Shown: positions 6,839 to 57,009, counted from the first letter of the stretch. The stretch: DNA of 61,792 nt from an uncultured Atopobiaceae bacterium (GCA_947581665.1 CANPVI010000001.1:1-61792); one strand, 5' to 3'. Translations and numbers: made by a program. Notes: a model not told the origin generated them from the sequence alone.

Positions 6839-6920
6839 AGCATAGCGTAAAAGACAGAAAGAGCCCAGCGAAAACCGCCCCCAAATTAGACTTTTTACGG
6901 AATAATCGAAAGAATTTTAT
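6839..6920 (-). promoter_or_regulatory. promoter module copy 2, upstream of the recombinase operon
   Basis: Minus strand reads ..GGTTTTCGCTGGGCTC-16 nt-TATGCT, then leader hairpin CTTTGG-cgta-CCAAAG (6825..6840) before the SD. Confidence 0.55.
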
Positions 6921-19592: not shown

Positions 19593-19690
19593 ACAATACC
19601 GTAAAAAGAGGAAAGAGCCCAGCGAAAAGCGGTCAAAAACACAACTTTTTTTCGGAAAATTCCAAGAATTTTTGGCACGAAAAAACCACC
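19593..19690 (-). promoter_or_regulatory. promoter module copy 3
   Basis: Minus strand reads AAAAAGTTGTGTTTTTGACCGCTTTTCGCTGGGCTC-16 nt-TATTGT. Leader hairpin GGGGCAGCACCCC lies at 19561..19573. Confidence 0.55.
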
Positions 19691-20354: not shown

Positions 20355-20445
20355 AGTATAGCGTAAAGAACGGAAAGAGCCCAGCGAAATCGCGCTAAAA
20401 ACACAACTTTTTTCAAAGAAAAATCGGGGGATTTTTTCCTCCGAT
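20355..20445 (-). promoter_or_regulatory. promoter module copy 4
   Basis: AAAAAGTTGTGTTTTTAGCGCGATTTCGCTGGGCTC-16 nt-TATACT. Leader hairpin GGGGAACACCCC lies at 20324..20336. Confidence 0.55.
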
Positions 20446-20899: not shown

Positions 20900-20990
20900 A
20901 GTATAGCGTAAAGAACAGAAAGAGCCCAGTGAAAATCGGCTAAAAACACAACTTTTTTCGGGAAAAACGAAAGAATTTTCGGCACTCTAA
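20900..20990 (-). promoter_or_regulatory. promoter module copy 5
   Basis: AAAAAGTTGTGTTTTTAGCCGATTTTCACTGGGCTC-16 nt-TATACT. Leader hairpin GGGCAACCGCCC lies at 20867..20878. Confidence 0.55.
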
Positions 20991-22334: not shown

Positions 22335-23672
22335 TCAGTCGAAAATCTCCACTCCGTCCCTGATGTGCCTGACATCGGCATTCGGATTCTGCTCTCGGAA
22401 TCGGCGCACGATGACATCGCAGTATCTCGGTTCGAGTTCGATTGCACAACACTTTCGGTTGAGCTGCTCGGCGGCAATCAAGGTCGAACCACTCCCGCAG
22501 AACGGCTCCAAGACCATGTCCCCCTCATGGCTGCTGTTATAGATGAGCTTGGCGCATAAGGTAATGGGTTTCATGGTCGGGTGGTCTGGGGACTTGCTCG
22601 GTTTGTTGTCCCTGATCACCGTGGTCGGCTTGCCGAGGATGTCTTCGAGTAGGTCTGCGAGTTCCGCCTTGGACATTTTCTTGATGTTCTCTCGGATGTC
22701 TTCGTAGACGGTCGGTAGCGTCCTATCGTCTATGAAGTAATGCCCCGCTCCTTCTTTCCATCCGTACAGTATCGGTTCATGGATCCATTGGTAGTCCTGT
22801 CTGCCAATGGTGAAGTGGTTTTTATACCACACGAGCGTCTGGGCATATTTCAGCCCCGCATCGGTCATCGCCTTGGTGAAGTTGACCGTTTCCTTGGTGC
22901 TGTGGAAGACATATATCGGTGCGCCGTTCTTCAACCCCTTCTCCGCCGCCTTATAAAAGGCACTCAAGAACTGGTAGAACTCATCGTCCGAAAGGTTATC
23001 GTTGGCGATGTTGCTGTTTTGTCGGCTACTCGAATGGTTCTTCCCCCTTATGCTCGATCCGTAGTCCACGTTGTACGGAGGATCGGTCACCATGATGTCC
23101 GCTTGCTTGCCGTCCAAAACTCGGTTCACATCCTCGAACTGTGTGCTGTCGCCGCACAACAGCCGATGCGTCCCCAAGAGCCACAAATCGCCCGTTTTGG
23201 TCTTCGGTTCGGCTGTTTCTTCGAGGGCAGTTTCGGCATCGAAATCATCTTCATGCACGTTCTCCATACTGCCGCTGCCGAACAGTTCCTGCGCTTCGGC
23301 AAGGTCGAAACCCGTGAGGGTGATGTCAAATCCGCTCCCGTCCAAATCACGGAGTAGATTCGCCAAGAGGTCGGTATCCCACTCGCCGCTGATTTTGTTC
23401 AAGGCGATGTTGAGAGCCTTTTCCTTGCTCTCTTCGAGGTCCACCACCACGCAGTCCACCTCCGTGTAGCCGAGGTCCTTCATCACGGTCAGCCGTTGGT
23501 GTCCGCCTACTACCTTGCCTGTCCGTTTGTTCCAGATGATAGGCTCGACATAGCCGAACTCCAAAATGCTCCGTTTGAGCTTCTCGTACTCGGCATCGCC
23601 GGGTTTGAGTGCTTTCCTCGGATTGTACTCCGCCGCCTTAAGGTCGGCTACTTGCTTTTTCTCAATCTCCAT
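22335..23672 (-). CDS. ParB-like nuclease domain fused to an N6-adenine/N4-cytosine DNA methyltransferase
   Basis: N-terminus ..AEYNPRK..VVGGHQRL.. (ParB/Srx fold). TDPPY catalytic motif. C-terminal LEPFCGSGST SAM motif. Start is ATG 23672 (GGAGG). Confidence 0.85.
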   Translation of the reverse strand: MEIEKKQVADLKAAEYNPRKALKPGDAEYEKLKRSILEFGYVEPIIWNKRTGKVVGGHQRLTVMKDLGYTEVDCVVVDLEESKEKALNIALNKISGEWDTDLLANLLRDLDGSGFDITLTGFDLAEAQELFGSGSMENVHEDDFDAETALEETAEPKTKTGDLWLLGTHRLLCGDSTQFEDVNRVLDGKQADIMVTDPPYNVDYGSSIRGKNHSSSRQNSNIANDNLSDDEFYQFLSAFYKAAEKGLKNGAPIYVFHSTKETVNFTKAMTDAGLKYAQTLVWYKNHFTIGRQDYQWIHEPILYGWKEGAGHYFIDDRTLPTVYEDIRENIKKMSKAELADLLEDILGKPTTVIRDNKPSKSPDHPTMKPITLCAKLIYNSSHEGDMVLEPFCGSGSTLIAAEQLNRKCCAIELEPRYCDVIVRRFREQNPNADVRHIRDGVEIFD

Positions 23673-23731
23673 TTTTCCTCCAAAATAATGACCACACCGC
23701 ATCGGTGTGGCCGTTCGTTTTTGCTGTCCGC

Positions 23732-23935
23732 TTATCTGTGTTCGGGTAACTGCCCGTCATCGACCAAGATGGCATACAAGATTCCGCTGTAATTGAATCT
23801 CTCCATCGTTGCCTTCATTTTGTCGTAGATTTTCTGCATCTCGGCTTGGCTTGCCTTCGCCCTGATTGCCGTTTCGTATTCATACACGAGTTGCTCTTCG
23901 AGAGCGCAGTCTTCATCGATTATAATGTTCGCCAT
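23732..23935 (-). CDS. hypothetical 67-aa protein
   Basis: MANIIIDEDCALEEQLVYEYETAIRAKASQAEMQKIYDKMK..; internal ATG directly after the upstream stop. Confidence 0.45.
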   Translation of the reverse strand: MANIIIDEDCALEEQLVYEYETAIRAKASQAEMQKIYDKMKATMERFNYSGILYAILVDDGQLPEHR

Positions 23936-23942
23936 GACTCTC

Positions 23943-24248
23943 TCACCTTGCCTTTTTGATGATGCCTGTGGATCTCGCCCAAGTGTAGCCGTCAAGGTCC
24001 ACCACGATGCTGTATGACACGTCTTCGCTGTCGATGCGGATGCATCTCCGTTCGCCCTTCTCCGTTTCGCCGCTGATGTCCGCATTCGCTTTCAGGAACT
24101 CATAGTCGCCCATGAGGTCTTCGCTGAACTTTACGAACTCCGCTCGGTCAAGGATGATCCGCTTTTCTACTTTGACCGCTATCTTTTCGCCGTCTTCATG
24201 GAGGTAATGCTCGATTGACCTCGCCTTATGCACCATTTTGATTTTCAT
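23943..24248 (-). CDS. hypothetical 101-aa protein
   Basis: GAAGGAGAAC SD. MKIKMVHKARSIEHYLHEDGEKIAVKVEK.. Confidence 0.6.
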   Translation of the reverse strand: MKIKMVHKARSIEHYLHEDGEKIAVKVEKRIILDRAEFVKFSEDLMGDYEFLKANADISGETEKGERRCIRIDSEDVSYSIVVDLDGYTWARSTGIIKKAR

Positions 24249-24288
24249 GCCGTTCTCCTTCGGGCATCTGCCCTTGTTTTTTTATGCA

Positions 24289-24376
24289 ATTATAGCGTAA
24301 ACAACCGAAAGAGCCCAGAGAAATGCGGCCTAAAACACAGGTTTTTTACAAGAAAAACGCTCGGATTCCCAAGCGT
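24289..24376 (-). promoter_or_regulatory. promoter module copy 6
   Basis: AAAACCTGTGTTTTAGGCCGCATTTCTCTGGGCTC-16 nt-TATAAT. Leader hairpin GGGCAGATGCCC lies at 24262..24273. Confidence 0.55.
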
Positions 24377-25165
24377 TCAGTCTTCAATGACGATGCAATT
24401 TACTCTCTGCGAGTGCGCCGTGCAAGCGTCTATCGCTATAATACCCTTTCCGTAGTATGGCGTGAAGTCCGCATCATCCTCGAACTCCGTGCCTTTCCCC
24501 TCGATCTTGGCGTGTCCGTAGGAGCAATGCCAATGCCCGCACACGATGGTCTTCCCTTCCTCTATCACTCCGTCCTGCGCCGCCGCCATTCCGTTATACC
24601 AACGGGAGAGTGCGAACTCTTCTTTCGGCTGTTCCCGCCAATTCGGTATCGGCAAGTATCGTGCCGAGTATCGGTTGACGAGTATCTTTTGGCAAGGTAT
24701 CCATCCGTGGGTGAAGATGTAATTCGGGGTTTCGTAGTAGTCGAGCATTGCGGGGATGAGCTTCTTGAAGTATGGTGTGTTCTCCATCTTCCTTGCCGTC
24801 CGCTCTGGATACAAGCAAGCCTCCGCAAGCGATTGCCCCGTGAGTTGCAGAATCGTATCAATCGTTCCGTTGCTCCAATGGTGGGTGAAGAAGATGCTAC
24901 TGTCATCGGTCAGCCACTTCGTTGCGTTCTGCACCAGTTCCTCGGTGAGGTCTTCGTGGTTTCCCCGTATAAGGATGAGCTGTCCCTTGGCTTGCTCCCC
25001 CACCATGAATTCTTGGAGTGCCACCGCTTCCCTGCCACGGTCGAACAGATCCCCGCAGACAAGGAGTTTGTGCGGCTCCTTATCGTAAAAGTATCCTTTT
25101 TCTTTGAGTGCCGCCACCATCTCCGTGTAGAACCCGTGGGTGTCGGCTAAAACATAATATCTCAT
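24377..25165 (-). CDS. calcineurin-like metallophosphoesterase (Ser/Thr phosphatase / diadenosine-tetraphosphatase-like)
   Basis: Motifs VLADTHG, GDLFDRG, GNHE and ..GHWH.. in canonical order. Confidence 0.85.
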   Translation of the reverse strand: MRYYVLADTHGFYTEMVAALKEKGYFYDKEPHKLLVCGDLFDRGREAVALQEFMVGEQAKGQLILIRGNHEDLTEELVQNATKWLTDDSSIFFTHHWSNGTIDTILQLTGQSLAEACLYPERTARKMENTPYFKKLIPAMLDYYETPNYIFTHGWIPCQKILVNRYSARYLPIPNWREQPKEEFALSRWYNGMAAAQDGVIEEGKTIVCGHWHCSYGHAKIEGKGTEFEDDADFTPYYGKGIIAIDACTAHSQRVNCIVIED

Positions 25166-25174
25166 TTGCCTATC

Positions 25175-25203
25175 ATTATAGCGTTTTTTGGCTTATTTAT
25201 CAA
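25175..25203 (-). promoter_or_regulatory. sigma-A-type promoter TTGATA-17-TATAAT for the phosphoesterase gene
   Basis: Minus strand reads TTGATAaataagccaaaaaacgcTATAAT, directly after the terL stop. Confidence 0.55.
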
Positions 25204-25215
25204 CCATTTGGGCGG

Positions 25216-26766
25216 CTAAATGACGATTATCCCCCTTTCGTTATACACGCTGTCCGTGCCGCCTTGGTTGCGTATCGCACGGTCCAGAGCCATGACGAGT
25301 GCCACCGCTCCGTCTATGCGCTCCGTGGACTTCTCTTTGTCCATCTTGATGTTGCCCGCAGGATCCGTGCGGACGAAGACGTTGTCCATCATCCACCGCA
25401 AAGGCACATTCCCGCCGTGCGCGATTTTCTGCTCAAGCACGAGCTTCATGAGTTCCTTTGTCGGTGGCGACATATCCTTGAACCCCTGACCGAACGGCAC
25501 GACCGTGAACCCCATCCCTTCGAGATTCTGCGTCATCTGCACCGCTCCCCATCGGTCAAAGGCGATTTCCTTGATGTTGTACTTTGTGCCGAGGTCCTCT
25601 ATAAAGGTTTCGATGTATCCGTAGTGGATGACATTCCCCTCGGTGGTTATGACCTGCCCCTTTGCTTTCCATGTGTCGTATGGAACGTGGTCACGCCGCA
25701 CTCGGAGGTCTATGGTGTCTTCGGGGATCCAAAAGAACGGCAAGACCATGTATTTATCGTCTTCGTCCAAAGGCGGAAAGACCAACACAAAGGCGGTGAT
25801 GTCCGTGCTGCTTGATAGGTCGAGTCCACCGTAGCACTCCCGCCCTTTCAGCCGTTCCGCATCCACGGCGAAGTCGCACTTGTCCCATGCATCCATAGGC
25901 ATCCAACGAACGCTTTGCTTTACCCATTGGTTCAGTCGCAGTTGGCGGAAGAGGTTTTCCTCCGCCGGGTTCTCTTTGGCGGACTCGTATGCGGTCCGCA
26001 GTTTTTCTATGTCCACCGTCACTCCGAGAGACGGATTTGCTTTCCGCCACACCGATTCGTCCGACCAATCATCGTCATCCTCTGCTCCGTATATCACTGG
26101 GTAGAATGTTTTGTCATGCTTTCGCCCTTCGAGGATGTCCTTTGCTTTTTGGTGGACTTCCCAACAGATGCTGTTCCGATCCGTTCCCGCCGTGGTTATA
26201 AGGAAGAACAGGGGTTGCTTTCTCGCATCGCCAGAGCCGTGAGTCATGACATCGTATAGGGCTCGGTTCGGCTGCGCATGGAGTTCATCGAACACGACTC
26301 CGTGGACATTCAGTCCGTGCTTGGTGTACGATTCCGCCGACAGCACCTGATAAAACGAATTCAGCGGCAGATAGACGAGCCGTTTCTGGCTCATCACAGG
26401 CTTGATGCGCTTTTTGAGTGCCGGGCATTGCTCCACCATATTGCAGGCGACATCGAAGACGATGCTTGCCTGCTGTCTGTCCGCCGCACAGCCGTACACC
26501 TCCGCACCCCACTCTCCATCCCCTGCGAGGAGATAAAGGGCGACAGCGGCCGCAATTTCGCTCTTCCCTTGCTTTTTGGGTATCTCTACATAGGCGGTGT
26601 TGTATTGCCTATATCCGTTGTCCTTTACTGTTCCGAATATATCTCGGATGATTTTATCTTGCCAAGGCAAGAGTTCAAACGGTACGCCGTGCCAAGTGCC
26701 TTTTGTGTGTTTTAAGGAGTTGATAAAGGCAACGGCACGGTCCGCAAGCTGCTGATTGTATGCCAT
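25216..26766 (-). CDS. terL: terminase large subunit
   Basis: 516 aa. ..GTWHGVPFELLPWQDKII..VEIPKKQGKSEIAAAVALYLL.. (Walker A-like) and a C-terminal nuclease region. Confidence 0.9.
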   Translation of the reverse strand: MAYNQQLADRAVAFINSLKHTKGTWHGVPFELLPWQDKIIRDIFGTVKDNGYRQYNTAYVEIPKKQGKSEIAAAVALYLLAGDGEWGAEVYGCAADRQQASIVFDVACNMVEQCPALKKRIKPVMSQKRLVYLPLNSFYQVLSAESYTKHGLNVHGVVFDELHAQPNRALYDVMTHGSGDARKQPLFFLITTAGTDRNSICWEVHQKAKDILEGRKHDKTFYPVIYGAEDDDDWSDESVWRKANPSLGVTVDIEKLRTAYESAKENPAEENLFRQLRLNQWVKQSVRWMPMDAWDKCDFAVDAERLKGRECYGGLDLSSSTDITAFVLVFPPLDEDDKYMVLPFFWIPEDTIDLRVRRDHVPYDTWKAKGQVITTEGNVIHYGYIETFIEDLGTKYNIKEIAFDRWGAVQMTQNLEGMGFTVVPFGQGFKDMSPPTKELMKLVLEQKIAHGGNVPLRWMMDNVFVRTDPAGNIKMDKEKSTERIDGAVALVMALDRAIRNQGGTDSVYNERGIIVI

Positions 26767-26780
26767 TTACTCCCCTTTGC

Positions 26781-26811
26781 GCAAAAATAAGGAAGGGACG
26801 AATCCCTTCCT
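26781..26811 (-). terminator. rho-independent terminator immediately upstream of terL
   Basis: Minus strand reads GGAAGGGA-ttcg-TCCCTTCC followed by TTATTTTT, 15 nt before the terL ATG. Confidence 0.65.
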
Positions 26812-26839
26812 GTGAACACGCTATTTTTGGTTTTGTCGG

Positions 26840-27271
26840 TTAGGCTCTCATCCGCGACTGAGTGTCCTTGATAGCCAAGTCGAGGTATTTCGGATCGATG
26901 CCGACGTCATCGTATCCTTCGAGGATCGTATGGTAGTAGAACTCCATCGGCAGTTCGGGTTCGCCGCTGTTCATGATATACACCATCGCCTCCACCGTCT
27001 TCCCTTTGAGTTCGACCGACACCATTTCCTTTCGGTAAAGGTGCGGGTATCCCTCGTAGATGTCGAGTGCCTGTTCATCCGTCTTTGTGATCTCCCACAC
27101 TCCGACTGGTGTTTCCGCACCCTTTTTCTTTTCGATGGTAGCCACCCGTCTAAAGGTCAGTTGGTAGTCTTTCAGCATTCCGATTCCGACCACTTTGGCG
27201 GTGGGACAGCGTCTTGCCATCTGCGCCAAGTTGAGGTTGCTCCCGTATGCTACATACAGTTTCGTTGCCAT
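26840..27271 (-). CDS. gamma-glutamylcyclotransferase (AIG2/GGCT-like)
   Basis: MATKLYVAYGSNLNLAQMARRCP..VWEI..LDIYEGYP..Y.. Start is ATG 27271 (AGGAGAA). Confidence 0.8.
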   Translation of the reverse strand: MATKLYVAYGSNLNLAQMARRCPTAKVVGIGMLKDYQLTFRRVATIEKKKGAETPVGVWEITKTDEQALDIYEGYPHLYRKEMVSVELKGKTVEAMVYIMNSGEPELPMEFYYHTILEGYDDVGIDPKYLDLAIKDTQSRMRA

Positions 27272-27312
27272 TGTCTTGTTCTCCTGTGGATTTTTTATTT
27301 CCTCGGTGGCGG

Positions 27313-28233
27313 TTATGCCGCCACCGTAGGTCTGCCATTCCTGAACGCGATGTCGCCTTCGAGGTTTTCGAGTAGGAACTTTCTTGCCGTTTCGAACTCT
27401 TCGCCTATCATCCCCATGCGGAGTAGCCATGTGCGGAAGGTGTATTTTTCGTTCGCCGTTTCCGTCTTCTTGGCGGTCGCTCCGCGTTGCGTGAGTGCTT
27501 GGTGGCTGATGGCGAGGCACAGTTGGATGTAGGTTTTTATCTTGCCTGCGTGAGTCGTGCCGTTGAAGCATCTGAACTCGATGCCCTTGCCCTGCCATAA
27601 GCTGTGCAGGTTGAGTGCATGGTAGCGGCTTGCGTTGTAGTGGTCAGTCCTTGACCTATAGCCATCGTCACAGTCTTCGTACCATAATCTCTGGACTGTC
27701 CGAGTGCTTGTCGGCTTGGAGCGGTTCATCGCCGCTACGAACTCTTGCTCACTCTTTTTGCACCATCTCCCTGCCCTGTCTGTGCTTACTCCGAGTGCCT
27801 TGAAAAGCAGGTCTTCTTTGCTGTTCATGATGTTGACGAGGTTTCGGAGGGTTTTGGCGGTGTATTGCTCCGCTCCGACGTGGACGTGGATCCCGCAGCT
27901 TGCGTTGGCGATTGCACCTTTGTGGCGGAGCTGCCTGACAATCTCTTGGATGTCTTCGATGTCATCCCATCCGCATATCGGTGTTACGACTTCGCACCTG
28001 TAGTTGTCCTGTTCGTCAACTGGGATGTCTGCGTGGTCTTTCCGCTCAGCCTTGATGCTCGAATCGTACATGATTGTCCATTTCCGTCCTTGGCGGTCGA
28101 TGGCTTTGTACTTTCCGTAGAACCCTCCGTCATAGTGCCATGTGCCGTTGTAGTAGTCGGCGATGACCTTTGCGGCTTGCTCTCTGGTGATGCCTGTGAG
28201 TTCGATTTCGACTCCGAATTTTTGTGTTTTCAT
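27313..28233 (-). CDS. putative amidoligase (Amidoligase_2 / glutamine-synthetase-like fold)
   Basis: MKTQKFGVEIELTGITREQAAKVIADYY..CGIHVHVGA..; family-typical N-terminal G-x-E-x-E and H-x-H. Start is ATG 28233. Confidence 0.7.
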   Translation of the reverse strand: MKTQKFGVEIELTGITREQAAKVIADYYNGTWHYDGGFYGKYKAIDRQGRKWTIMYDSSIKAERKDHADIPVDEQDNYRCEVVTPICGWDDIEDIQEIVRQLRHKGAIANASCGIHVHVGAEQYTAKTLRNLVNIMNSKEDLLFKALGVSTDRAGRWCKKSEQEFVAAMNRSKPTSTRTVQRLWYEDCDDGYRSRTDHYNASRYHALNLHSLWQGKGIEFRCFNGTTHAGKIKTYIQLCLAISHQALTQRGATAKKTETANEKYTFRTWLLRMGMIGEEFETARKFLLENLEGDIAFRNGRPTVAA

Positions 28234-28282
28234 AGCGTGTTCTCCTTTTTGGGGTTCTTTCCGTCCCCCGTTTTGCAAGCAA

Positions 28283-28372
28283 ACAATACCGTAAAAACAC
28301 ACAAGAGCCCAGCGAAAATCGGCCGAAATTCGAAAGTTTTTGAAAGAATTTTTCGGGAATTTTTACGGCTTG
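28283..28372 (-). promoter_or_regulatory. promoter module copy 7
   Basis: ..CGGCCGATTTTCGCTGGGCTC-16 nt-TATTGT. Leader stem GGGG..CCCC lies at 28251..28268. Confidence 0.55.
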
Positions 28373-28575
28373 TAGCCAATCCCCTTGAAGTTCCTTTCAC
28401 CCCTCTTCACAGCCTCCATTTCGGCTTTCTGCGCCGCTTGGTAGGCGGGGTTTTCCTGCTCTTTCGCTTTGCATTCCAGACAGATGCAGTCTTCGTTGAA
28501 CATAGACATCGTCCGTCCACCCGTCAATTCCTTGCCGCAGCGGTCGCAATATTTTTGGCTGAAGAATTTGTCCAT
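28363..28575 (-). CDS. 70-aa zinc-ribbon protein
   Basis: CDRCGK..17 aa..CICLEC; start abuts the upstream stop. Confidence 0.55.
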   Translation of the reverse strand: MDKFFSQKYCDRCGKELTGGRTMSMFNEDCICLECKAKEQENPAYQAAQKAEMEAVKRGERNFKGIGYKP

Positions 28576-29280
28576 TTATATCTCCGTCACTTCCGTTATA
28601 TTTTTCAATTTGTAGGGGTTCAGCACGACCTCCGATTCGTTTCTTCCCATGAAGAATGCCAAGATGTCCTGCTTGCCGATCTCCGCTTTGTACACCGTAC
28701 CGCTTTGTCCGAATCGGTTGGCGAACCACTTCGCTTTCGCTTTATCCAAGGTCCACGAGAGAGCTTTCACATTCCTCGCATTATAGGGTGTTACCCCTCG
28801 GTAGACCGTCACACTTTCTCCGAGTTCGGCGAGTCGCTTGCTTTCCTCGGCATCCATCATGACCGCCTTGTCCGCTTCCTTGAACATAGACACCAATTCC
28901 TTCTTGCTGACGTTGGTATCCATGTTCGGGTTCTCGGCTTGCATCCATGCATCTGCGAGGATCAGCGACAGGTCTTTTGCCGATAGATGCTCTTTCGCAT
29001 ATTTCAGGAACGTAAGCGCATAGGTCTTATTCAGCAACATGAATATCCCGTATGCGTCTTCCGCCCTATCTATCTGCTTGCCGATAAATTCCCGCCATGC
29101 AGTTAGGTCTTCGGTGCTTGCGGTGATGTCCACGATCCGCTTGATGCCGGGGAGCATCGTCACCCCCGATGAGGCGAATGGGTGTTGCACGATCATTGGC
29201 GAATATTCCGTCTTATGGACTTCGATATTCAAGAGCCAATGCGCAACTGCCTTTACCTGACTCAGATCCGTCTTTTCCAC
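28576..29280 (-). CDS. hypothetical protein with a C-terminal R-S-E (ADP-ribosyltransferase-like) motif set
   Basis: ..VTVYRGV..ALSWTL..RNESEVVLNP.. Start set to GTG 29280 (GAAGGAGAAC 4-6 nt upstream, same SD context as sister cassettes). Confidence 0.45.
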   Translation of the reverse strand: MEKTDLSQVKAVAHWLLNIEVHKTEYSPMIVQHPFASSGVTMLPGIKRIVDITASTEDLTAWREFIGKQIDRAEDAYGIFMLLNKTYALTFLKYAKEHLSAKDLSLILADAWMQAENPNMDTNVSKKELVSMFKEADKAVMMDAEESKRLAELGESVTVYRGVTPYNARNVKALSWTLDKAKAKWFANRFGQSGTVYKAEIGKQDILAFFMGRNESEVVLNPYKLKNITEVTEI

Positions 29281-29322
29281 TTCGTTCTCCTTCGGACAGT
29301 CCTTTCCTGTCCATTTGCCCAA

Positions 29323-29364
29323 ACAATAGCGTAATCGGCGGACGAAGTCCAGTGATTTTCGACC
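29323..29364 (-). promoter_or_regulatory. promoter module copy 8 (degenerate: CACTGGACTT-16 nt-TATTGT)
   Basis: Same 16-nt spacing as the other copies. Leader hairpin GGACAG-gaaagga-CTGTCC lies at 29294..29312. Confidence 0.45.
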
Positions 29365-29403
29365 GAAAAAACAAAGAACCGACAGGATTTTCCTTATCGG
29401 TTC
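29365..29403 (-). terminator. rho-independent terminator after 29471..29695
   Basis: Minus strand reads GAACCGA-14 nt-TCGGTTC followed by TTTGTTTTTT. Confidence 0.55.
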
Positions 29404-29470
29404 ATTGTTTCTTTTTTATAATTAAATGTAGCCTATCCAACCGCCTTTTCCGTTCGGGCGGTTTTCGTTT

Positions 29471-29695
29471 TTAGTTCGGTTGCGCTGCCACTACTTCCCC
29501 TATGACACAGCGGAATTGCTGTCCGTTTGAGAAGTTCAGTATCAATGTGAGGCCCTGCTCTTCATAGGTCGCATTGAACAGATCCTCCAAAGCCACTCGG
29601 ATATCGGTGACCAATTCTTCGGGGGTTACATGGTAGTCATCGAACAGGCTTGCCGTCCTTTCTACCTTGGCTGATTCAGTTGCTGTGTTTTTCAT
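29471..29695 (-). CDS. hypothetical 74-aa protein
   Basis: MKNTATESAKVERTASLFDDYHVTPEEL..; own consensus promoter upstream. Confidence 0.55.
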   Translation of the reverse strand: MKNTATESAKVERTASLFDDYHVTPEELVTDIRVALEDLFNATYEEQGLTLILNFSNGQQFRCVIGEVVAAQPN

Positions 29696-29750
29696 ACAAT
29701 ACTCCTTTTTATTGATTTCCGAGGAGTTCGCGCGTCATCCTTGTAGTTAT

Positions 29751-29794
29751 ATTATACCCTTTGCGGACAGGACTGTCAATACAAAAGTCCTGTC
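29751..29794 (-). promoter_or_regulatory. consensus promoter TTGACA-17-TATAAT with a 9-bp inverted repeat bracketing the -35
   Basis: -10 at 29756..29751 and -35 at 29779..29774. The repeat is GACAGGACT (29766..29774) / AGTCCTGTC (29786..29794). Confidence 0.6.
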
Positions 29795-29834
29795 TATGGA
29801 GGATAATAAATTGTCGAAAGGAGGCTTTTATTGT

Positions 29835-30275
29835 ATGAATTTGTCGATTTTCTCGGAAAGGCTTTCCGACCTCATTTTTGACGGCAAGATTAAGACCGAG
29901 GATTTTGCGAAAGCCATCGGTTGTAGCCGTTCTTCTGCATTCGAGCTGAAGTCCGGGGATAGAGAACCCACCCTTGACACGCTTGTCCGCATCGCCGATT
30001 TTTTCCATTGCACGACCGATTATCTGGTTGGGCTCGATGAGGTCATGTATCAGTCAATGACTTTCACGCCGTGTCCGCCCTTTGCCGAACGGATCCCCGC
30101 CATCTGCGCACACTTCAAAATCTCGCGTTATCGCCTACAGCAGATGACCAAAATACCCGAATCAACTCTCTATGCTTGGGCGCACGGAAAGACTGTCCCC
30201 TCCGTTGAAAACCTTGTCAAGATGGCACAGGCTCTCGACTGTTCGCTTGATTTTATCATCGGTCGCGCTATGTAG
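29835..30275 (+). CDS. XRE-family regulator with two tandem HTH domains
   Basis: AGGAGG SD. HTH1 is ..KTEDFAKAIGCSRSSAFELKSGDREPTLDTLVRIADFF.. and HTH2 is ..RYRLQQMTKIPESTLYAWAHGKTVPSVENLVKMAQAL.. Confidence 0.75.
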   Translation: MNLSIFSERLSDLIFDGKIKTEDFAKAIGCSRSSAFELKSGDREPTLDTLVRIADFFHCTTDYLVGLDEVMYQSMTFTPCPPFAERIPAICAHFKISRYRLQQMTKIPESTLYAWAHGKTVPSVENLVKMAQALDCSLDFIIGRAM

Positions 30276-30280
30276 CCCCC

Positions 30281-31399
30281 TCAGATTCTGAGGGCATCTT
30301 TGAGTGCTTCCGCCTTATCCGTCAGTTCCCAAGCAAGGTATTCCTTGCCGAAGTGACCGCCGACTGCGGTCTGCCCGAACACGGCACAGCGGAGGTCGAG
30401 CTTCTCTATCGCTCCGCCGACCGAGAGGTCAAAGACCTTTTCGACCGCATCCTTGATGAGCTTTTCGTTGACCTTGCCCGTGTAAAAGGTATTGATGTCG
30501 ATGGTGGTCGGTCTGGGGACTCCGATGGCATACGAGAGTGCCACTTCGCACTTCTCGGCGAGTTTTGCGGCGACTATGTTCTTGGCAATGTATCTTGCAA
30601 GGTATGCACCGCTGCGGTCCACCTTGCTTGCATCCTTTCCGCTCATCGCTCCACCGCCGTGATGGGCGATGCCGCCGTAGGTGTCCACCATGAGTTTCCG
30701 TCCCGTGAGTCCCGTGTCCGCTTCGAACCCGCCGAGGACAAACCGCCCAGACGGATTGATGAGAATCTCCGCATCGGTGAGGTCGTACTCTCCAAGCACC
30801 TTGCCGATGACCTTTGTCCGTATCTCTTCGGTCAGCTCTGCGAGGTCCTTTTCCTCGGTGTGCTGCGCCGACACCACCACCGATGTGATGTGGTCGAACC
30901 TGTCGCCGTTGTATTGGATAGACACTTGGCTCTTCCCATCGGGACGGAGTCCGTTGATGATCCCATCTCTGCGGCACTCTTCGAGTCGGTCCGTCAGTCG
31001 GTGTGCGAGTTCTATCGGGAGCGGCATATAGTTCATCGTTTCATCGGTCGCATAACCATAAACGATGCCCTGATCACCTGCGCCGAGTTCCGCTCTTCCC
31101 ACCGCCTGTGAGATGTCCGGGGACTGCTCATGAATTCGAACTTCGACTTCGATGCCCGTGGTATCGTAGCCGACCTGCGCCATGACCGACCTTGCTATGT
31201 ATTCGTAGTCGATGTCCGCCGCCGTGGTGATCTCGCCGCTGATGAAACACTTATTGTGGGCAAGCATGACTTCGCAAGCCACTCTGCTGTATTTGTCCTG
31301 CTCCAAGCATTCATCGAGGATGCTGTCGGCTATGAGGTCGGCGAGTTTGTCAGGATGCCCGTTCGTAACCGATTCCGCCGTGTAGATTCGTTTCGTCAT
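30281..31399 (-). CDS. metK: S-adenosylmethionine synthetase
   Basis: TAESVTNGHPDKLADLIADSILD, GAGDQGIVYGYA, GGGAMSGKD(ASKVDRS). Confidence 0.9.
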   Translation of the reverse strand: MTKRIYTAESVTNGHPDKLADLIADSILDECLEQDKYSRVACEVMLAHNKCFISGEITTAADIDYEYIARSVMAQVGYDTTGIEVEVRIHEQSPDISQAVGRAELGAGDQGIVYGYATDETMNYMPLPIELAHRLTDRLEECRRDGIINGLRPDGKSQVSIQYNGDRFDHITSVVVSAQHTEEKDLAELTEEIRTKVIGKVLGEYDLTDAEILINPSGRFVLGGFEADTGLTGRKLMVDTYGGIAHHGGGAMSGKDASKVDRSGAYLARYIAKNIVAAKLAEKCEVALSYAIGVPRPTTIDINTFYTGKVNEKLIKDAVEKVFDLSVGGAIEKLDLRCAVFGQTAVGGHFGKEYLAWELTDKAEALKDALRI

Positions 31400-33264
31400 A
31401 TTTGTTCCTCCGTTAAAAATAAAGCCTTGAAGATTTCCTCCAAGACCTGCACAACTATGCCGTTGCCCGCTTGCCGATATTGCTGTGTTCCGCTGATTTT
31501 TGCGGCATCAATTCGGTCGATTTGTTCATCCTTCCACCCCATAAGGCGAAGGCATTCTCTCGGTGTGAGCTTGCGGATTCGGATGTTCTCCGTTACCACC
31601 GCATTCCCATCGCCGCAGGTCAGTGTGTGCGCCACTCCCTTGCCTACCCGTCCGCGTTTCGTTTTACTGCCGGGGTAGGTCAGATTGATGAAGTCACCCC
31701 TTTCGGCCTCTTCGTAGCCTTGCTTGGTCGCCACTTTGACCTGCACGGGTTCTTCGAGCATTAAGACTGCCGAACTCCCACTGGGACAAGAGCATTGCCC
31801 AGTGAGAGTCGGCGCAACATCGCCGACTTCTTGCTTATTGTAGGCTACAAAGTTTTCGGGTATGTACCCATTCTCGGCTATAAATTCCTTATAGCGGCGA
31901 GCCACATATTGTTTCGAGCCCCTTTTCTTCTGGACGACAAGGTTGTCCTTTTGCACCGAGGTCAGCGTGTTGCACAAGCCTTTTTCGTTGATCTCCAACC
32001 GCTGTTCCGTGGGTATCCCTGCGGTGCGGTCGGAGGGGTTTTCGGGGTTTCTCCCTCGCATTGCCCCTATGAGCGGAGAATCTTCGTCCCCCTCTACTAT
32101 CGGCAATATCGCTGTTTTGAACCCCTCTGGACGAGTGGTTATCGTAGGACAGATACCGCTTTTGTTGACCTTTTTGTTGAAAGCGTCCACGGTGTCGCCC
32201 ACTTCGCAGTCATTTTCAAGCACCGTTTCCACGGCTTGCTTGAAAAATCGTTCGTCCTTTCCCTCTTTCGTATCGATGATGATGGGAGTTTGTCCGCCAC
32301 CCTTGCCCATCGCCTCCGTGAGCGCCGGGCTGATGCCGTCCGTTCTCGGTGTTTGATGCGCTTGGAGTCCGCCGATGACAAAGTTCTCCGCTATCTTTAA
32401 CTCCGTATTGCCGCCCTGCGCACAATGCACGGTCGGCGCAATGCCGTTCGGTTCATAGACTCTGCGGCTGATGTCATGCATCTTGTCCCACTTCTCGCCT
32501 ACCACTTCGCCGACCTGAACACATTGCGGGCCTTTGTAGTCCCTTTGCAGAATGGTGTTCGCCACTTCGTCCCCACGCTTTATGCTGTCCCTGCGAGAGT
32601 TGAAAGACGATGTCACGATGCTCCGAATGGTGCTTTCCTTGAGGTAGAACTTTTCGTCCACTTCATCGTCTATCATGTCCCGCAATCGCAGTTTCAGTTC
32701 TTGCTTTTCGGGAAAGACGAACGGCTTATGTTCGCCTCTTATGGATACGCAGAACACCCTTTCCCTGTTTTGCGGTATACCGTAGTCCTTGGCATTGAGT
32801 ATCTGCCAATAGTTCGTATAACCGAGCGAAGACAAAAAATAAAGCCAACGGTCAAAGTCGGCTTTGAATCTTTTGCTCACAAGGTTCTTCACGTTTTCGA
32901 GCAGTAGGTATTTTGGGAGGGTTCCCTCTTCGTTCGCCGTGGTCAAGAGCCGTTCGACTTCGAAGAGCAGTCCGCTCCGAGTTCCCTCTCGGATGCCTGC
33001 CCCTCGCCCTGCCACGGAGATGTCCTGACAAGGGAACGAGTATGTCCAAAGGTCTGCTTTCGGCAATGCCCTGATTTTTCGGATGTCGCCGAAGTTATGT
33101 ACCTTGCCGTGCAGAGCCTCGTAGGACTTGATTGCATACTTGTCTATCTCCGAAATGCCGACTATCGTATGCGGCACTCCGATGTTCGTCAAGGCTTGCG
33201 TTTGGCTGCCTATCCCTGCGAATAACTCTATGAGTTTCAACGGATTTTCGTCCGTGTATTCCAT
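31396..33264 (-). CDS. DNA (cytosine-5)-methyltransferase with an unusually long variable (target-recognition) region
   Basis: Motif I is LFAGIGS, motif IV SFPCQDIS, motif VI ENVKNL. Motifs IX/X lie about 350 aa later (..TPRECLRLMGW.., QAGNGIVV). 622 aa. The ATG overlaps the terS stop. Confidence 0.9.
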   Translation of the reverse strand: MEYTDENPLKLIELFAGIGSQTQALTNIGVPHTIVGISEIDKYAIKSYEALHGKVHNFGDIRKIRALPKADLWTYSFPCQDISVAGRGAGIREGTRSGLLFEVERLLTTANEEGTLPKYLLLENVKNLVSKRFKADFDRWLYFLSSLGYTNYWQILNAKDYGIPQNRERVFCVSIRGEHKPFVFPEKQELKLRLRDMIDDEVDEKFYLKESTIRSIVTSSFNSRRDSIKRGDEVANTILQRDYKGPQCVQVGEVVGEKWDKMHDISRRVYEPNGIAPTVHCAQGGNTELKIAENFVIGGLQAHQTPRTDGISPALTEAMGKGGGQTPIIIDTKEGKDERFFKQAVETVLENDCEVGDTVDAFNKKVNKSGICPTITTRPEGFKTAILPIVEGDEDSPLIGAMRGRNPENPSDRTAGIPTEQRLEINEKGLCNTLTSVQKDNLVVQKKRGSKQYVARRYKEFIAENGYIPENFVAYNKQEVGDVAPTLTGQCSCPSGSSAVLMLEEPVQVKVATKQGYEEAERGDFINLTYPGSKTKRGRVGKGVAHTLTCGDGNAVVTENIRIRKLTPRECLRLMGWKDEQIDRIDAAKISGTQQYRQAGNGIVVQVLEEIFKALFLTEEQI

Positions 33265-33761
33265 CAGCTTCCCCCTCCCAATAGTTTTTCCATGATGTCG
33301 TCATTGGGATTTTTGTCATCCCATTTCGACAATTTGCTTTCTCGCACCACGACATATATCTTTGCCCACACTTCGTTGGTCTGTTTGAGGTATTGCTGCG
33401 CCATCGCCACGAACGGAGACGGCATCGCCTTTCCGTTGGTGGGATCTTTCACGAGCAAGCCGTGCTTGGTGTTCATGTCTTCGCACTCCAACCACCGAGC
33501 CTTGCAAAAGGCATATTCTTCGAGGTTGTATGGCAGTATGCCCTTGGTGCATCCGATTCCTTTCAACCACGCATAGACCGTTTTGTATATCTCTTTCGCC
33601 TTGGCGGAGAGATATGCCGGGGGTTCGCTCGGCAATTCCATAGCGTCCTGTCCGAAGTCCACTATTTCGATTGTCCGTCTGCCGGGGTTGCCCTCTAATA
33701 TCTTTTGAGTGGCTGCCTTTTTCGGTCGCCCTGCGCCGGGGCGTCTTCCTCCACTTGCCAT
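33264..33761 (-). CDS. terS: terminase small subunit (P27 family)
   Basis: MASGGRRPGAGRPKKAATQKILEGNPGRR..; family-typical N-terminus; follows HNH and the cos-like region. Confidence 0.85.
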   Translation of the reverse strand: MASGGRRPGAGRPKKAATQKILEGNPGRRTIEIVDFGQDAMELPSEPPAYLSAKAKEIYKTVYAWLKGIGCTKGILPYNLEEYAFCKARWLECEDMNTKHGLLVKDPTNGKAMPSPFVAMAQQYLKQTNEVWAKIYVVVRESKLSKWDDKNPNDDIMEKLLGGGS

Positions 33762-34159
33762 ATTCCCTCCCTTTTTCGATTGATTTTTGCCCTATGAAAT
33801 GCTATAATGTTTCCATCGAGCATATTGCCGAGCCACGTCGAGTATCCGATGCCTTCGGTTGAACACTATGCTTGAAGAAGACAATCCGCCAGTCACCTTT
33901 GGATACTCAATGCACTTGGTTGAACGGTCAATCTTCGGGGCAGCCCTTTTGCGGACTGCCCTTTTGATTTTTCCTGATAAATTGATATTTTTGATTTTCC
34001 CGCGAAATCAAAAAGGGACGTTTCCGTCCCCTTTTACCTTCGGTAAAGATTTTCCGATTTTGATTTTTTGCTTTGATTTTTGATTATGCGAAAATTCGCG
34101 TTTGATTGCGGCCCCGCTGTCTGTGTTGATTTCGGTAGAGATTTGACCTCCCCCTGCCC
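33762..34159. other. non-coding cos-like region between HNH and terS
   Basis: At least 8 copies of TTGAT(T/A) lie within 33960..34135. Also a duplicated GCCCTTTTG and the hairpin GGGACG-tttc-CGTCCC (34016..34031). The position is as in HK97-type cos phages. Confidence 0.5.
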
Positions 34160-34546
34160 TCACGACTTCGGATAGTCATGCGGTCGAGTTCCCCACCGAG
34201 AACCCTCTTCGGCTGACTTGCGTGAGTGGCAAGCCCAACAAAGACTTTGGAGATTGCTCGGTGCGAACTTCTCGCCACCGTCCTTGATGGGGACGATGTG
34301 ATCCACCATTGTGGCTTTCGTTCTTTTTCCCGCTTTCAGACAGTCCTCGCAAAACGGATGCTGTTCGAGCTGCCGATTCCTTGCGTATAACCATTCGGGG
34401 GATTTGTAGAAGTTCTTGGTGAAGTCATCTCGCCCGTAAAGATTATACTGTTTATCCGTAAGCCGTTTGTGTTCCTCACAGTATTGTCCCTCTACCAGTC
34501 GGGGACAGCCGGGGTAGCTACACGGTCGTTTCGGTTTTCTTGGCAT
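34160..34546 (-). CDS. phage HNH endonuclease (terminase-associated)
   Basis: ..CSYPGC..C..H.. plus ..DHIVPIKDGG..NLQSLCWACHSRK. Confidence 0.9.
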   Translation of the reverse strand: MPRKPKRPCSYPGCPRLVEGQYCEEHKRLTDKQYNLYGRDDFTKNFYKSPEWLYARNRQLEQHPFCEDCLKAGKRTKATMVDHIVPIKDGGEKFAPSNLQSLCWACHSRKSAEEGSRWGTRPHDYPKS

Positions 34547-34574
34547 TTTTTATTCGCTCCTTCGCCTGTCGATT

Positions 34575-34632
34575 TCATTATACACCCGTCAACCGAGCTT
34601 TTCGTCAACTTTTGTCAACCGTCCGTCAACCA
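34575..34632 (-). promoter_or_regulatory. promoter region with four direct GTTGAC repeats and a TATAAT box upstream of HNH
   Basis: Minus strand reads GGTTGACGGACGGTTGACAAAAGTTGACGAAAAGCTCGGTTGACGGGTGTATAATG. On the + strand GTCAAC lies at 34588, 34604, 34614 and 34625. Confidence 0.55.
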
Positions 34633-34648
34633 ATCGTCTATTCTTTTT

Positions 34649-35368
34649 TCAGACTCGGTCGGCGAATAGGATTTCAAGTATTGACATCGCCCTGTTGCGC
34701 TTTTTATGAACAGCCTGTTTGGAGTATCCCAACCATCTCCCAATGGTACTCATGGATTCCCCTTGCACATAAAGGTGGACGATTATTGCTTTCGCCTCAT
34801 CATCGAGTTGGTCAATGCACCTGTCGAGATATTCCATATCCGCTTTCAGCTCGGCTACTTCCTTGCTGTTGCCGACTGCGATCCTCGCCTTGTTTATTTT
34901 GTAGTTGTCCAATAATTCCTTTATGCCGGGCATCATGCTTTCTTCCTTTTCTCCAAATTCTTCGGCTATTTCCTGCCTATGTTTTTCTTGCTGTATCCGC
35001 AAGTCCCACACCCAATCGGTCGTTTCGTTCGGTTCTAATGACGTGTTCAGCCACAATCGGACTTGTCCGCTGTCTTCGAGTTCTTCCGACCAATCGTCCG
35101 CTTGGCATATCCCTCGGAGTTCCCATATCTGCATTTTTCCAAAGGTTTTGCCCTTGTAGAAGAATAACATCAGCATTCGGTCGGTGGTTTCGTCCAGATA
35201 CTTGGCTCGGAAGTAGTAACCGCCAAAGCGTTGCAGATTGCCGTTTATATAGTCCTCGGTTTCCCGCTTTATATCGGTTTTCGGCATTGGGCTGTCCGTT
35301 TCGCTTGCATAGTCGAACTCCGCCTCCGCCGTTATGACCACTTTGTTGATTACCGATTCCGTTTTCAT
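34649..35368 (-). CDS. ArpU/RinA-like (sigma-70 region-4-like HTH) transcriptional activator with a ~150-aa N-terminal extension
   Basis: C-terminus ..LDDEAKAIIVHLYVQGESMSTIGRWLGYSKQAVHKKRNRAMSILE... Located directly upstream of the packaging genes. Confidence 0.6.
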   Translation of the reverse strand: MKTESVINKVVITAEAEFDYASETDSPMPKTDIKRETEDYINGNLQRFGGYYFRAKYLDETTDRMLMLFFYKGKTFGKMQIWELRGICQADDWSEELEDSGQVRLWLNTSLEPNETTDWVWDLRIQQEKHRQEIAEEFGEKEESMMPGIKELLDNYKINKARIAVGNSKEVAELKADMEYLDRCIDQLDDEAKAIIVHLYVQGESMSTIGRWLGYSKQAVHKKRNRAMSILEILFADRV

Positions 35369-35369
35369 G

Positions 35370-35657
35370 TTACTCCTTCTCGAATGCAGAAATTGTCTTT
35401 CTCACCTCATCTACCGTCCGTACTACCACCGCATATCCGCCTGCGGCAATGATTTGTCCGATGGTTATCGCTTGGAGAGCGGTCGGCTTATTTTTTCCGA
35501 CTTTGCACTCGAATGCGATAAATCGTCCCTTGTAACAGACTATCAAATCTGGAACACCCGCCGTTCCGTACATCCCTCCGTGTTCTTTCCAAAAGAAGAG
35601 ATTGGGAATGGTTTTGAGGTATTCACTTATCTTCCTTATCAAATCGCTCTCTTTCAT
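35370..35657 (-). CDS. VRR-NUC domain nuclease
   Basis: ..GVPDLIVCYKGRFIAFECKVGKNKPTALQ.. (PD-(D/E)xK). Confidence 0.8.
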   Translation of the reverse strand: MKESDLIRKISEYLKTIPNLFFWKEHGGMYGTAGVPDLIVCYKGRFIAFECKVGKNKPTALQAITIGQIIAAGGYAVVVRTVDEVRKTISAFEKE

Positions 35658-35678
35658 TTCCCCTCTTTTCAGACACTA

Positions 35679-35797
35679 CCTGTCATAACCGTCATTCCGT
35701 CATTATGACGAATTTCAAAAATGACACAAACCCCGTCTTGTGGATTTCGGTCTATTTTTTTGCGTTACAAGGATGACGGAATGACAGGAGTGACGGG
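35679..35797. repeat. GTCAT/ATGAC iteron cluster with a 13-bp inverted repeat and an AT-rich centre (candidate origin or operator)
   Basis: GTCAT at 35682, 35691 and 35699. ATGAC at 35705, 35721, 35773 and 35781. GTCATTCCGTCAT (35691..35703) pairs with ATGACGGAATGAC (35773..35785). Confidence 0.5.
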
Positions 35798-35815
35798 TGC
35801 TGTTCATAGAAGTGG

Positions 35816-43100: not shown

Positions 43101-43475
43101 TTACATTTCCAAAATTTTAATGTCATAAATGTTCGAGAAAAATATTTTCATCTCGTCCAATATCAGATATTTGTACGCATAGTCTATCCGTTGCACCTTG
43201 CCGCAGGACTCCACGTCATGGCAGGCTCGGTAATGCTCGATCCGTACTTTCATCCCTGTTTCAAGCATAGCCAATGTTTCGGAGATTTCCTCGATGGTAT
43301 CATCGGAGAGGTCCCGTTTTTCCACTCGGCTGCGCCGTTCCTCTCGCACCGCCAAGGCTTCTTTCAAGCCCTTCATCGCATCGAACGGCATAAACTGTTT
43401 AGCCCTTTGTTCCCTTGTCATCGTACCCTGCTCTGTGTCCGCCGATGAAACCATTCCGTTCTCTCTGCGTGGCAC
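43101..43475 (-). CDS. YolD-like protein (start uncertain: GTG 43475, ATG 43454 or ATG 43421)
   Basis: ..REQRAKQFMPFDAMKGLKEAL..; downstream partner of the Y-family polymerase, as in SPbeta yolD-uvrX. Confidence 0.7.
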   Translation of the reverse strand: MPRRENGMVSSADTEQGTMTREQRAKQFMPFDAMKGLKEALAVREERRSRVEKRDLSDDTIEEISETLAMLETGMKVRIEHYRACHDVESCGKVQRIDYAYKYLILDEMKIFFSNIYDIKILEM

Positions 43476-44685: not shown

Positions 44686-44701
44686 CAGCCACCGCCTGTC
44701 T

Positions 44702-56991: not shown

Positions 56992-57009
56992 ATTGATATC
57001 TCCTTTCGG

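Follow-up and report, generated by a model that had tools for sequence, protein, structure and literature searches.

Genes for an Amidoligase_2-type carboxylate-amine ligase and for an enzyme of the AIG2/gamma-glutamylcyclotransferase (GGCT) fold are already known as neighbours in Firmicutes phages. Iyer, Abhiman, Burroughs and Aravind reportedly made a prediction for such pairs in 2009. The PHROG collection names both families (2443 and 2520), prophage papers cite the 2009 work, and those that offer a function for the pair all repeat its prediction of cell-wall or peptide modification. We analysed such a pair in a prophage on a 61,792-nucleotide stretch of DNA from an uncultured Atopobiaceae bacterium (GCA_947581665.1 CANPVI010000001.1:1-61792; this whole stretch is called the window below). 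Between the genes for the small and large terminase subunits (terS and terL) lie two cassettes, each 3' of one copy of a promoter-like module. Cassette a encodes X234, a protein whose C-terminal domain resembles ADP-ribosyltransferases (ARTs), and a Zn-ribbon protein; cassette b encodes the amidoligase and the GGCT-type protein (Table 1). An earlier note on this DNA had described the four open reading frames (ORFs); all were found where it placed them, on the minus strand, and its motif and domain calls were right. The amidoligase/GGCT pair is the known part of this locus, already catalogued and uncharacterised, and the ART-like X234 is plausibly the new part.

The pairs of Firmicutes phages share families, gene order and adjacency with cassette b. 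Nothing in the window is different in kind from them; it adds the promoter-like modules and a Zn-ribbon encoded by a separate gene. In C. difficile, module B of Tn6164 has the order MetK, methylase, a 'virulence-related' protein of ~230 residues, amidoligase, AIG2/GGCT and terminase, and amidoligase and GGCT genes have been listed in prophages of C. clostridioforme and Terrisporobacter. The cassette of phiEco32-type podoviruses likewise combines a carboxylate-amine ligase with a GGCT, but it also has an ATP-grasp enzyme, a glutamine amidotransferase and a second ligase, and it lies among replication genes whereas the pair of the window lies beside the terminase genes. Neither an ATP-grasp enzyme nor a glutamine amidotransferase was found among the terS-terL proteins scanned or the Pfam hits listed for related loci. 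In BtrJ/BtrG of butirosin biosynthesis and in the cycle of GCL and GGCT, the gamma-glutamyl group put on by an ATP-dependent ligase is later taken off, as 5-oxoproline, by an enzyme of the GGCT fold. The write/erase or protecting-group logic that we propose for cassette b is the same as in BtrJ/BtrG and the gamma-glutamyl cycle; however, BtrJ is an ATP-grasp enzyme and not glutamine synthetase-like, and both systems act on small molecules, free or bound to a carrier, in a larger pathway that is absent here. For X234, the phage-encoded T4 proteins Alt, ModA and ModB offer the same order of R...S...ExE motifs.

Gene neighbourhoods of the two cassettes

The earlier note had taken the four genes for a single module, an idea that we reject from co-occurrence counts. 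Relatives of X234 are present in 53 viral loci, and only the two closest of these also have the amidoligase, the GGCT and the Zn-ribbon. Among 80 genomic loci with an X234 relative, just 3, all of them Christensenellales prophages, carry the amidoligase, the GGCT and TerL, while DUF4314 occurs in 38/80, an ArdA/LPD28-like gene in 36/80 and a C5 methylase in 30/80; the carriers are mostly conjugative elements with TrbL, TraG and sortase genes. X234 in turn accompanies the amidoligase in one of 80 viral loci (IMG/VR, 51-76% amidoligase identity to the window), and the slot upstream of the amidoligase elsewhere holds a sigma-like gene and small ORFs. X234 thus occurs mostly without the pair and the pair mostly without X234, and the Zn-ribbon is tied to the ligase and GGCT genes, a distribution that points to two separately mobile modules. 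On phages as on conjugative elements, X234 is found in the company of DNA methylases and anti-restriction genes, and we therefore regard it as a mobile effector.

The genes of the block are 64-74% identical to their counterparts in the closest relatives (L001 and L002), and the flanking TerS, TerL, methylase and MetK 85-95% (87-95% in L001). Faster divergence of the block would fit conflict-driven selection or frequent exchange.

Both proteins of cassette b belong to the families that the earlier note had named. The amidoligase matches Amidoligase_2 (PF12224) with 238 bits (cutoff 22) over profile positions 1-244 of 245, and in PHROG it matches phrog_2443 (2.7e-97) far better than phrog_7469 (3.4e-10). 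Residues E9, E11, H116, H118, E219 and R221 show no variation among 16 homologs or across 80/80 viral loci; by analogy with the fold family they would form a glutamine synthetase-like active site. The GGCT-type protein scores 48.1 bits (cutoff 22.8) and 37.4 bits (cutoff 27) against PF06094 and PF13772, respectively, and its best solved relative is human GGCT (4.3e-6). Its Y9-G10-S11-N12 and E73 align with Y22-G23-S24-N25 and the catalytic E98 of the human enzyme and are kept in 79/79 viral loci. Judged by these conserved residues, both enzymes look catalytically intact.

The GGCT gene directly follows the amidoligase gene in 79 of the 80 viral loci, and in every case terL or terS-terL comes just downstream of the pair. 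The same gene order is found in prophages carrying P0029 (445 blocks of the collection), and the amidoligase has more than 7,000 homologs. The adjacency, the position beside the terminase genes and the unvarying catalytic residues together argue for a strongly selected two-enzyme unit, so that the pair, as the earlier note had held, is a real one. The note had also stated that no phage role of the pair has been shown, and our literature searches agreed, finding no experimental function. Since the pair is very common in Clostridia phages, has near-perfect synteny with the terminase genes and yielded no experimental function in these searches, it is a well-defined target for study.

The 70-residue protein of cassette a proved to be a Zn-ribbon, as described earlier. 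Cysteines C10, C13, C30, C32 and C35, in the pattern CxxC...CxCxxC, do not vary among 6 homologs, and N[FY]xG[IV]G is conserved near the C-terminus; the match to Pfam DZR stays below cutoff (14.6 bits versus 27.3). The family has 1,599 homologs, of which the best-scoring 120 are nearly all standalone proteins of 68-78 residues; NCBI labels some of these 120 'gamma-glutamylcyclotransferase'. Positions 2-131 of phrog_27033 match the GGCT of the window and positions 141-206 its Zn-ribbon, and two loci (L099 and L100) encode natural GGCT-Zn-ribbon fusions in a single protein. In L082, the Zn-ribbon gene lies upstream of the amidoligase gene without X234, and in a Sutcliffiella prophage (L224) it overlaps the 3' end of a gene for a degenerate amidoligase paralog. 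Because of these fusions and linkages we assign the Zn-ribbon to the ligase/GGCT genes, although it is encoded beside X234 in the window, and it is most plausibly a docking adaptor of that unit. Small Zn-ribbon proteins are also encoded beside an amide ligase in the LysW/LysX system, where LysW has an acidic C-terminal tail that ends in Glu. The arrangement in the window is alike, but the acidic tail is absent: the window protein ends in GIGYKP and its relatives in GIGLDAPKNS, GVGLPNKK, GIKG or GIRG. The fusion to GGCT makes a role as adaptor more suitable than one as carrier.

A polyubiquitin match of the Zn-ribbon profile (E 2e-18) was rejected, as it sums one 16-residue motif (GKxLxDGRTxSxYN) over nine repeats, and matches to single ubiquitin repeats have E values of ~110 each. 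Residues 13-28 of the Zn-ribbon profile (CGKELTGGRTMSMFNE in the window) resemble ubiquitin AGKQLEDGRTLSDYNI, which is the source of the spurious values. A resemblance to TraR/DksA-type zinc fingers (E 0.54) is a lead only.

In many lineages, a second ligase-like gene lies upstream of the pair. Its product is a true homolog of the amidoligase (profile comparison, probability 98.4%), and the two proteins share a C-terminal helical segment of ~50 residues (NEKYxxRxWLLRLG...AFR) beyond the Pfam model. Opposite the CGIHVHV and IEFRCFN motifs of the amidoligase, however, the sequence of the paralog is unrelated, and for that reason it looks like a catalytically dead ligase. Examples are found in L113 (4763-5536) and L224 (4241-5008), with 255-257 residues and without a Pfam hit.

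The ART-like protein X234

X234 has no match in Pfam, NCBIfam or PADLOC, and its sole family, phrog_4776, has no annotated function. The family is nevertheless large, with 7,659 representative clusters at 50% identity (E up to 1e-3). The motifs are Y160-R161-G162, S175-W176-T177 and E215-x-E217. Their R, S and E residues are invariant in 29 close homologs, and R161, G162, S175, W185, F186, R189, E215 and E217 are present in 30/30 diverse homologs with identities down to ~28% (R213 in 29/30). The YRG/LSWT/ESEVVL pattern, which the earlier note had picked out as an R-S-E triad, is hence more than chance. The note had also called the spacing between R and S short for a classical ART. R161 and S175 are 14 residues apart, and the distance is shorter still in many relatives, compared to ~40 residues in T4 ModA. 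The N-terminal domain of X234 is unrelated to the T4 proteins.

AlphaFold2 (AF2) models were obtained with high confidence for the whole protein (pLDDT 90.6) and for residues 143-234 alone (pLDDT 89.8). In the model the domain has the order beta1(R)-helix-beta2(SWT)-helix-beta3-beta4-loop-beta5(ExE)-beta6. R161 is located in strand 156-163, S175-W-T177 forms strand 175-177 and is followed by helix 180-187, and E217 immediately precedes strand 218-220. As modelled, the order of secondary structure is canonical, with R, S and ExE placed as in R-S-E enzymes. A Foldseek search with the whole model gave a best E value of 0.77 and a weak list rich in ART-fold proteins. With the model of the domain, the first 25 hits in the Protein Data Bank (PDB) were without exception ART-fold structures (TM 0.39-0.57). 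The top match was KptA/Tpt1 (probability 0.99, E 0.019, TM 0.54, rmsd 3.9 A, 98 columns), which covers only the NAD lobe at 10-17% identity; further hits were CNFy domain 4, which is ART-like, TreTu, IcmQ, PltA and PARPs including PARP1. The structural comparison that the earlier note had recommended thus came out for an ART fold in its ranking, while the best E value and TM score are modest.

Several results weigh against X234 being an ART. No Foldseek hit reached E 1e-3 or better, and neither X234 (E up to 0.1) nor 10 distant relatives (E up to 1) matched an ART family in Pfam. PDB sequence searches with X234, as a single sequence or as a profile, gave no ART hit. When the C-terminal profile was aligned to T4 ModA/ModB with hhalign, the local P value was 0.07 and the global probability 0.1%. 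ART-like folds that lack catalysis, namely CNFy domain 4 and IcmQ, are among the structural hits. Under permissive settings, hhalign lines up YRG, the SWT-helix and ExE of X234 with WRG, the SAS-helix and EQE of ModA, but this alignment falls short of significance (P 0.07, probability 0.8%). The hits that the PDB sequence and profile searches did give were chance matches (ClpP, E 1.3; the aveugle SAM domain, E 0.045; T4 capsid, E 1.4). Fold and motifs therefore agree with the ART call made earlier, whereas the statistics are weak and a profile link to a known ART is lacking. Considering both sides, we think that the C-terminal domain probably has the ART fold as modelled, and we regard it as about an even call whether X234 catalyses ADP-ribosylation of some target. 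A new and divergent member of the known ART superfamily is a plausible description.

X234 could also be something other than a protein ART: an NAD-binding or non-catalytic scaffold, or a nucleic acid-modifying enzyme like Tpt1/KptA or DarT. Such an identity would suit its top matches, since KptA/Tpt1 act on RNA or DNA phosphates and CNFy domain 4 and IcmQ are non-catalytic, as well as the steady presence of DNA methylase and ArdA-like neighbours, which points to nucleic-acid conflicts. The link between beta1 and beta2 is far shorter than in T4 ModA/ModB, and the classical toxin ARTs (C3, iota, VIP2) are absent from the Foldseek hit lists. The conserved residues speak otherwise. The active-site tetrad of Tpt1 is R-H-R-R, whereas X234 keeps R, S and ExE invariant. 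An ExE followed by a hydrophobic strand, as found in X234, resembles protein-arginine ARTs. A non-catalytic scaffold, moreover, would not fix all active site-like residues down to 28% identity. On this evidence we consider it doubtful that X234 is anything other than a protein ART.

The C-terminal ART-like domain also occurs alone. It is present as well in proteins of ~400 residues that NCBI annotates as HD-domain proteins, encoded on Bacillus-group plasmids (H63, H65, H67 and H68) and in some phages; examples are L023 7587-8768 and L028 7521-8735. The Pfam HD matches that we obtained are weak (E 0.02-0.04). When 10 longer and 10 distant relatives were scanned with Pfam, no ART family came up; besides weak matches to HD domains, the scans gave what look like chimeras, one a MobL/Sel1 fusion and one with an amidoligase fragment. 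Informative annotation is lacking for the family, which is present in phages as well as in the anti-restriction islands that conjugative elements carry; if X234 is an active ART, it would add a widespread counter-defence effector to the mobile elements of gut Firmicutes.

Promoter-like modules and candidate functions

The bipartite motif CTGGRCT-N10-20-TACGSTAT occurs in 7 copies in the window, all on the coding strand, where 0 are expected by chance. Two copies lie directly upstream of cassettes a and b, which bears out the promoter modules that the earlier note had seen there. Over its ~100 nt, the complete module runs from an A-rich stretch and TTTTCGCTGGGCTCTT through ~10 nt, TTTACGSTAT and a small hairpin to an AAGGAG ribosome-binding site. 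Besides X234 and the amidoligase, modules precede the portal gene, the serine recombinase gene (copy at 6842-6868) and three other small cassettes, which lie between terL and the portal gene. The copies were aligned with each other and with those of related phages, in which they are conserved upstream of the same genes; the cassette b module is kept upstream of the amidoligase in L054, L066 and L082. The 3' half resembles the -10 element of sigma-70 promoters and the 5' half is unlike a -35 element. An Rfam scan of 24000-36000 found no known RNA family, and the upstream module thus corresponds to no described RNA element. Because one of the phage's own proteins has a sigma-70 region 4 domain, and in related phages the amidoligase cassette is immediately preceded by a sigma-like ORF, we infer that the modules drive phage-directed transcription; they are probably read with the region 4 protein (Table 1). 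The seven copies offer a route to study how accessory cassettes are wired into the transcription programme of a phage. A consensus host promoter, TTGACA-17-TATAAT (12/12 matches), is located at 29779-29751 before orf74, a 74-residue ORF upstream of cassette a.

We give an even chance to a reading in which two separately mobile covalent-modification cassettes, driven by the modules, serve host takeover or counter-defence. The amidoligase would join a carboxylate, most likely the gamma-carboxyl of glutamate, to an amine using ATP, and the GGCT would then strip the gamma-glutamyl group as 5-oxoproline. Together they would tag or protect a protein, a peptide or an amine with a gamma-glutamyl-type group and take that group off again, with the Zn-ribbon as an optional adaptor that docks the enzymes on a macromolecule. 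X234 may be a minimal R-S-ExE effector of the ART fold that modifies a host macromolecule in an NAD+-dependent manner. Both cassettes, together with the neighbouring methylases and MetK, would act in host takeover or counter-defence, a role that the earlier note had proposed and that the neighbouring genes suggest. This proposal builds on the observed domains, conserved residues, linkage and repeats, to which it adds putative substrates, expression timing and a biological role. Two readings go further, namely that X234 represents an undescribed minimal R-S-ExE ART clade serving phages and conjugative elements as a general establishment or anti-defence effector, and that the amidoligase, GGCT and Zn-ribbon carry out reversible gamma-glutamyl-type tagging of a packaging, virion or host-defence protein; we consider them unlikely.

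Some findings count against covalent modification in takeover or counter-defence. At E up to 0.01, all four proteins were without a match among the PADLOC defence models, and in literature searches we found no experiment on any of them. A module also precedes the serine recombinase gene, which makes the timing class unclear. A ligase and a cyclotransferase could, furthermore, equally make up a small-molecule pathway. In its specific form, this explanation has the ligase make a gamma-glutamyl amide (such as gamma-Glu-amino acid or gamma-glutamyl-polyamine) that GGCT then splits into 5-oxoproline and the amine, which would alter glutamate, polyamine or thiol pools or burn ATP in the course of infection. 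Glutamine synthetase-like ligases include gamma-glutamylcysteine ligase and PuuA, and GGCT and GGACT act on free gamma-glutamyl amino acids or amines, so the biochemistry of both families fits, as does human GGCT, a small-molecule enzyme, as the best solved relative. The fixed site beside the packaging genes would suit counter-ions packaged with DNA. A ligase and a cyclotransferase working on a free metabolite would, however, run a futile cycle of no clear benefit. Neither transporter genes nor further metabolic genes were seen with the pair in the loci examined, and the Zn-ribbon fused to GGCT and the retained dead-looking ligase paralog point to a macromolecular target. We consider the small-molecule pathway rather improbable.

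Less probable still is that cassette b alters the peptidoglycan stem or teichoic acid-linked peptides so that other phages are excluded from the lysogen or infected cell, as has been proposed for the phiEco32-type 'peptidoglycan modification' cassette. Modification of the cell wall is the interpretation repeated for phage amidoligase/GGCT genes, each time with a citation of Iyer et al. (2009). The three further enzymes of the phiEco32-type cassette are missing here, where one active ligase and a GGCT are present, and the ligase of the window belongs to a different PHROG family (phrog_2443 and not phrog_7469). In addition, cassette b shares its module with the portal gene and is not preceded by a consensus host promoter like that of orf74. 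That the pair, the methylases and MetK form a DNA-modification pathway adding an amino acid-derived group to a base is very improbable: a C5 methylase, MetK and a ParB-N6/N4 methylase are neighbours here and the pair adjoins methylases in several lineages, but no hydroxymethylase, thymidylate synthase homolog, base kinase, glycosyltransferase or TET/JBP-type enzyme was found among the 20 larger window proteins scanned outside the block, and no methylase or MetK was detected within the flank examined in L101, L106 and L121.

The surrounding prophage

The window is a prophage, as shown by its phage genes, which include those for a large serine recombinase, portal, protease, capsid, tape-measure protein, primase-helicase, SNF2 helicase, Y-family polymerase and LexA-like repressor. 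The element, a prophage of gut Clostridia, is a temperate siphovirus of Christensenellales, and the region studied here comprises its packaging genes. Its closest relatives are Christensenellales genomes and phages; a search at the DNA level gave matches that were all short, with 66-80% identity, to Christensenellales phages and three unannotated faecal phage records. The placement of the block between terS and terL, as noted earlier, was borne out, with a C5 methylase, MetK, a helix-turn-helix (HTH) regulator and orf74 sharing the interval. The HTH gene apart, the whole region is encoded by the minus strand.

Table 1. Features of the packaging region and copies of the promoter-like module. 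Positions count from the first nucleotide of the window.
Feature	Position	Strand	Evidence or remarks
Phage protein with sigma-70 region 4 domain, candidate reader of the promoter-like modules	34649-35368	minus	Sigma70_r4_2 5.2e-6; PHROG sigma-factor and regulator families
HNH endonuclease	34160-34546	minus	5' of terS in transcription order
terS, terminase small subunit	33264-33761	minus	upstream boundary of the accessory interval; phrog_83 5.4e-32; 94.5% identity to L001
C5 DNA methylase, 622 aa	31396-33264	minus	ORF; family from an 85%-identical counterpart (L145) carrying PF00145 (L054-L057)
MetK, S-adenosylmethionine synthetase, 372 aa	30281-31399	minus	three S-AdoMet_synt Pfam domains: 1.8e-57, 1.2e-40, 8.6e-31
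Double-HTH (Xre-type) regulator	29667-30275	plus	HTH_3 1.5e-19 in two stretches; weak PADLOC HTH, RmrA and CapH matches
orf74, 74-aa ORF	29471-29695	minus	own consensus sigma-70 promoter
Module upstream of cassette a	29281-29385, core 29326-29352	minus	followed by GAAGGAGAAC ribosome-binding site
X234, 234 aa, GTG start	28576-29280	minus	phrog_4776 6.6e-34; N-terminal alpha/beta domain and C-terminal minimal ART-like domain (~150-234)
Zn-ribbon protein, 70 aa	28363-28575	minus	ATG immediately after X234 stop codon
Module upstream of cassette b	28234-28345, core 28286-28312	minus	followed by AAAGGAGAAC ribosome-binding site
Amidoligase_2, glutamine synthetase-like carboxylate-amine ligase, 306 aa	27313-28233	minus	Pfam PF12224 1.9e-70
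GGCT (AIG2/GGCT fold), 143 aa	26840-27271	minus	Pfam GGACT 2.1e-12, AIG2_2 3.5e-9; phrog_2520 1.2e-40
Terminator-like hairpin and T-run	26790-26811	minus	9-bp stem with 5 GC pairs, then TATTTTTG; closes cassette b before terL
terL, terminase large subunit	25216-26766	minus	downstream boundary; TerL_ATPase 5.7e-21, TerL_nuclease 2.3e-51
Copies of the module motif	6842-6868, 19596-19622, 20358-20384, 20903-20929, 24292-24318, 28286-28312, 29326-29352	minus	

The HTH gene and orf74 (29471-30275), between MetK and X234, have no match in L001 and L002. The HTH gene has 23-41% matches in L084-L088, and orf74 has no family match in Pfam, PHROG, NCBIfam or PADLOC. The two look like a separately acquired unit driven by a host promoter, a lineage-specific insertion. 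Further modification enzymes are encoded between terL and the portal gene (22335-25165): at 24377-25165 a NinI-like metallophosphatase, and at 22335-23702 a ParB_N-N6/N4 DNA methylase. Accessory enzymes have a hotspot in the packaging region. MetK of the widespread P0029-type prophages (L054-L057, 6032-7906) has 624 residues, ~250 more than the 372 of the window protein, and the extra region is without a Pfam match. Within the prophage, the Y-family DNA polymerase (IMS domains) adjoins the LexA-like S24 peptidase repressor (43399-45304). At 52991-57966, genes for an Mrr_cat-helicase fusion (552 residues), a GHKL-type ATPase protein (780 residues) and a C5 DNA methylase (318 residues) follow in a row, and this stretch has the look of an island for restriction or defence, located outside the prophage or at its edge.

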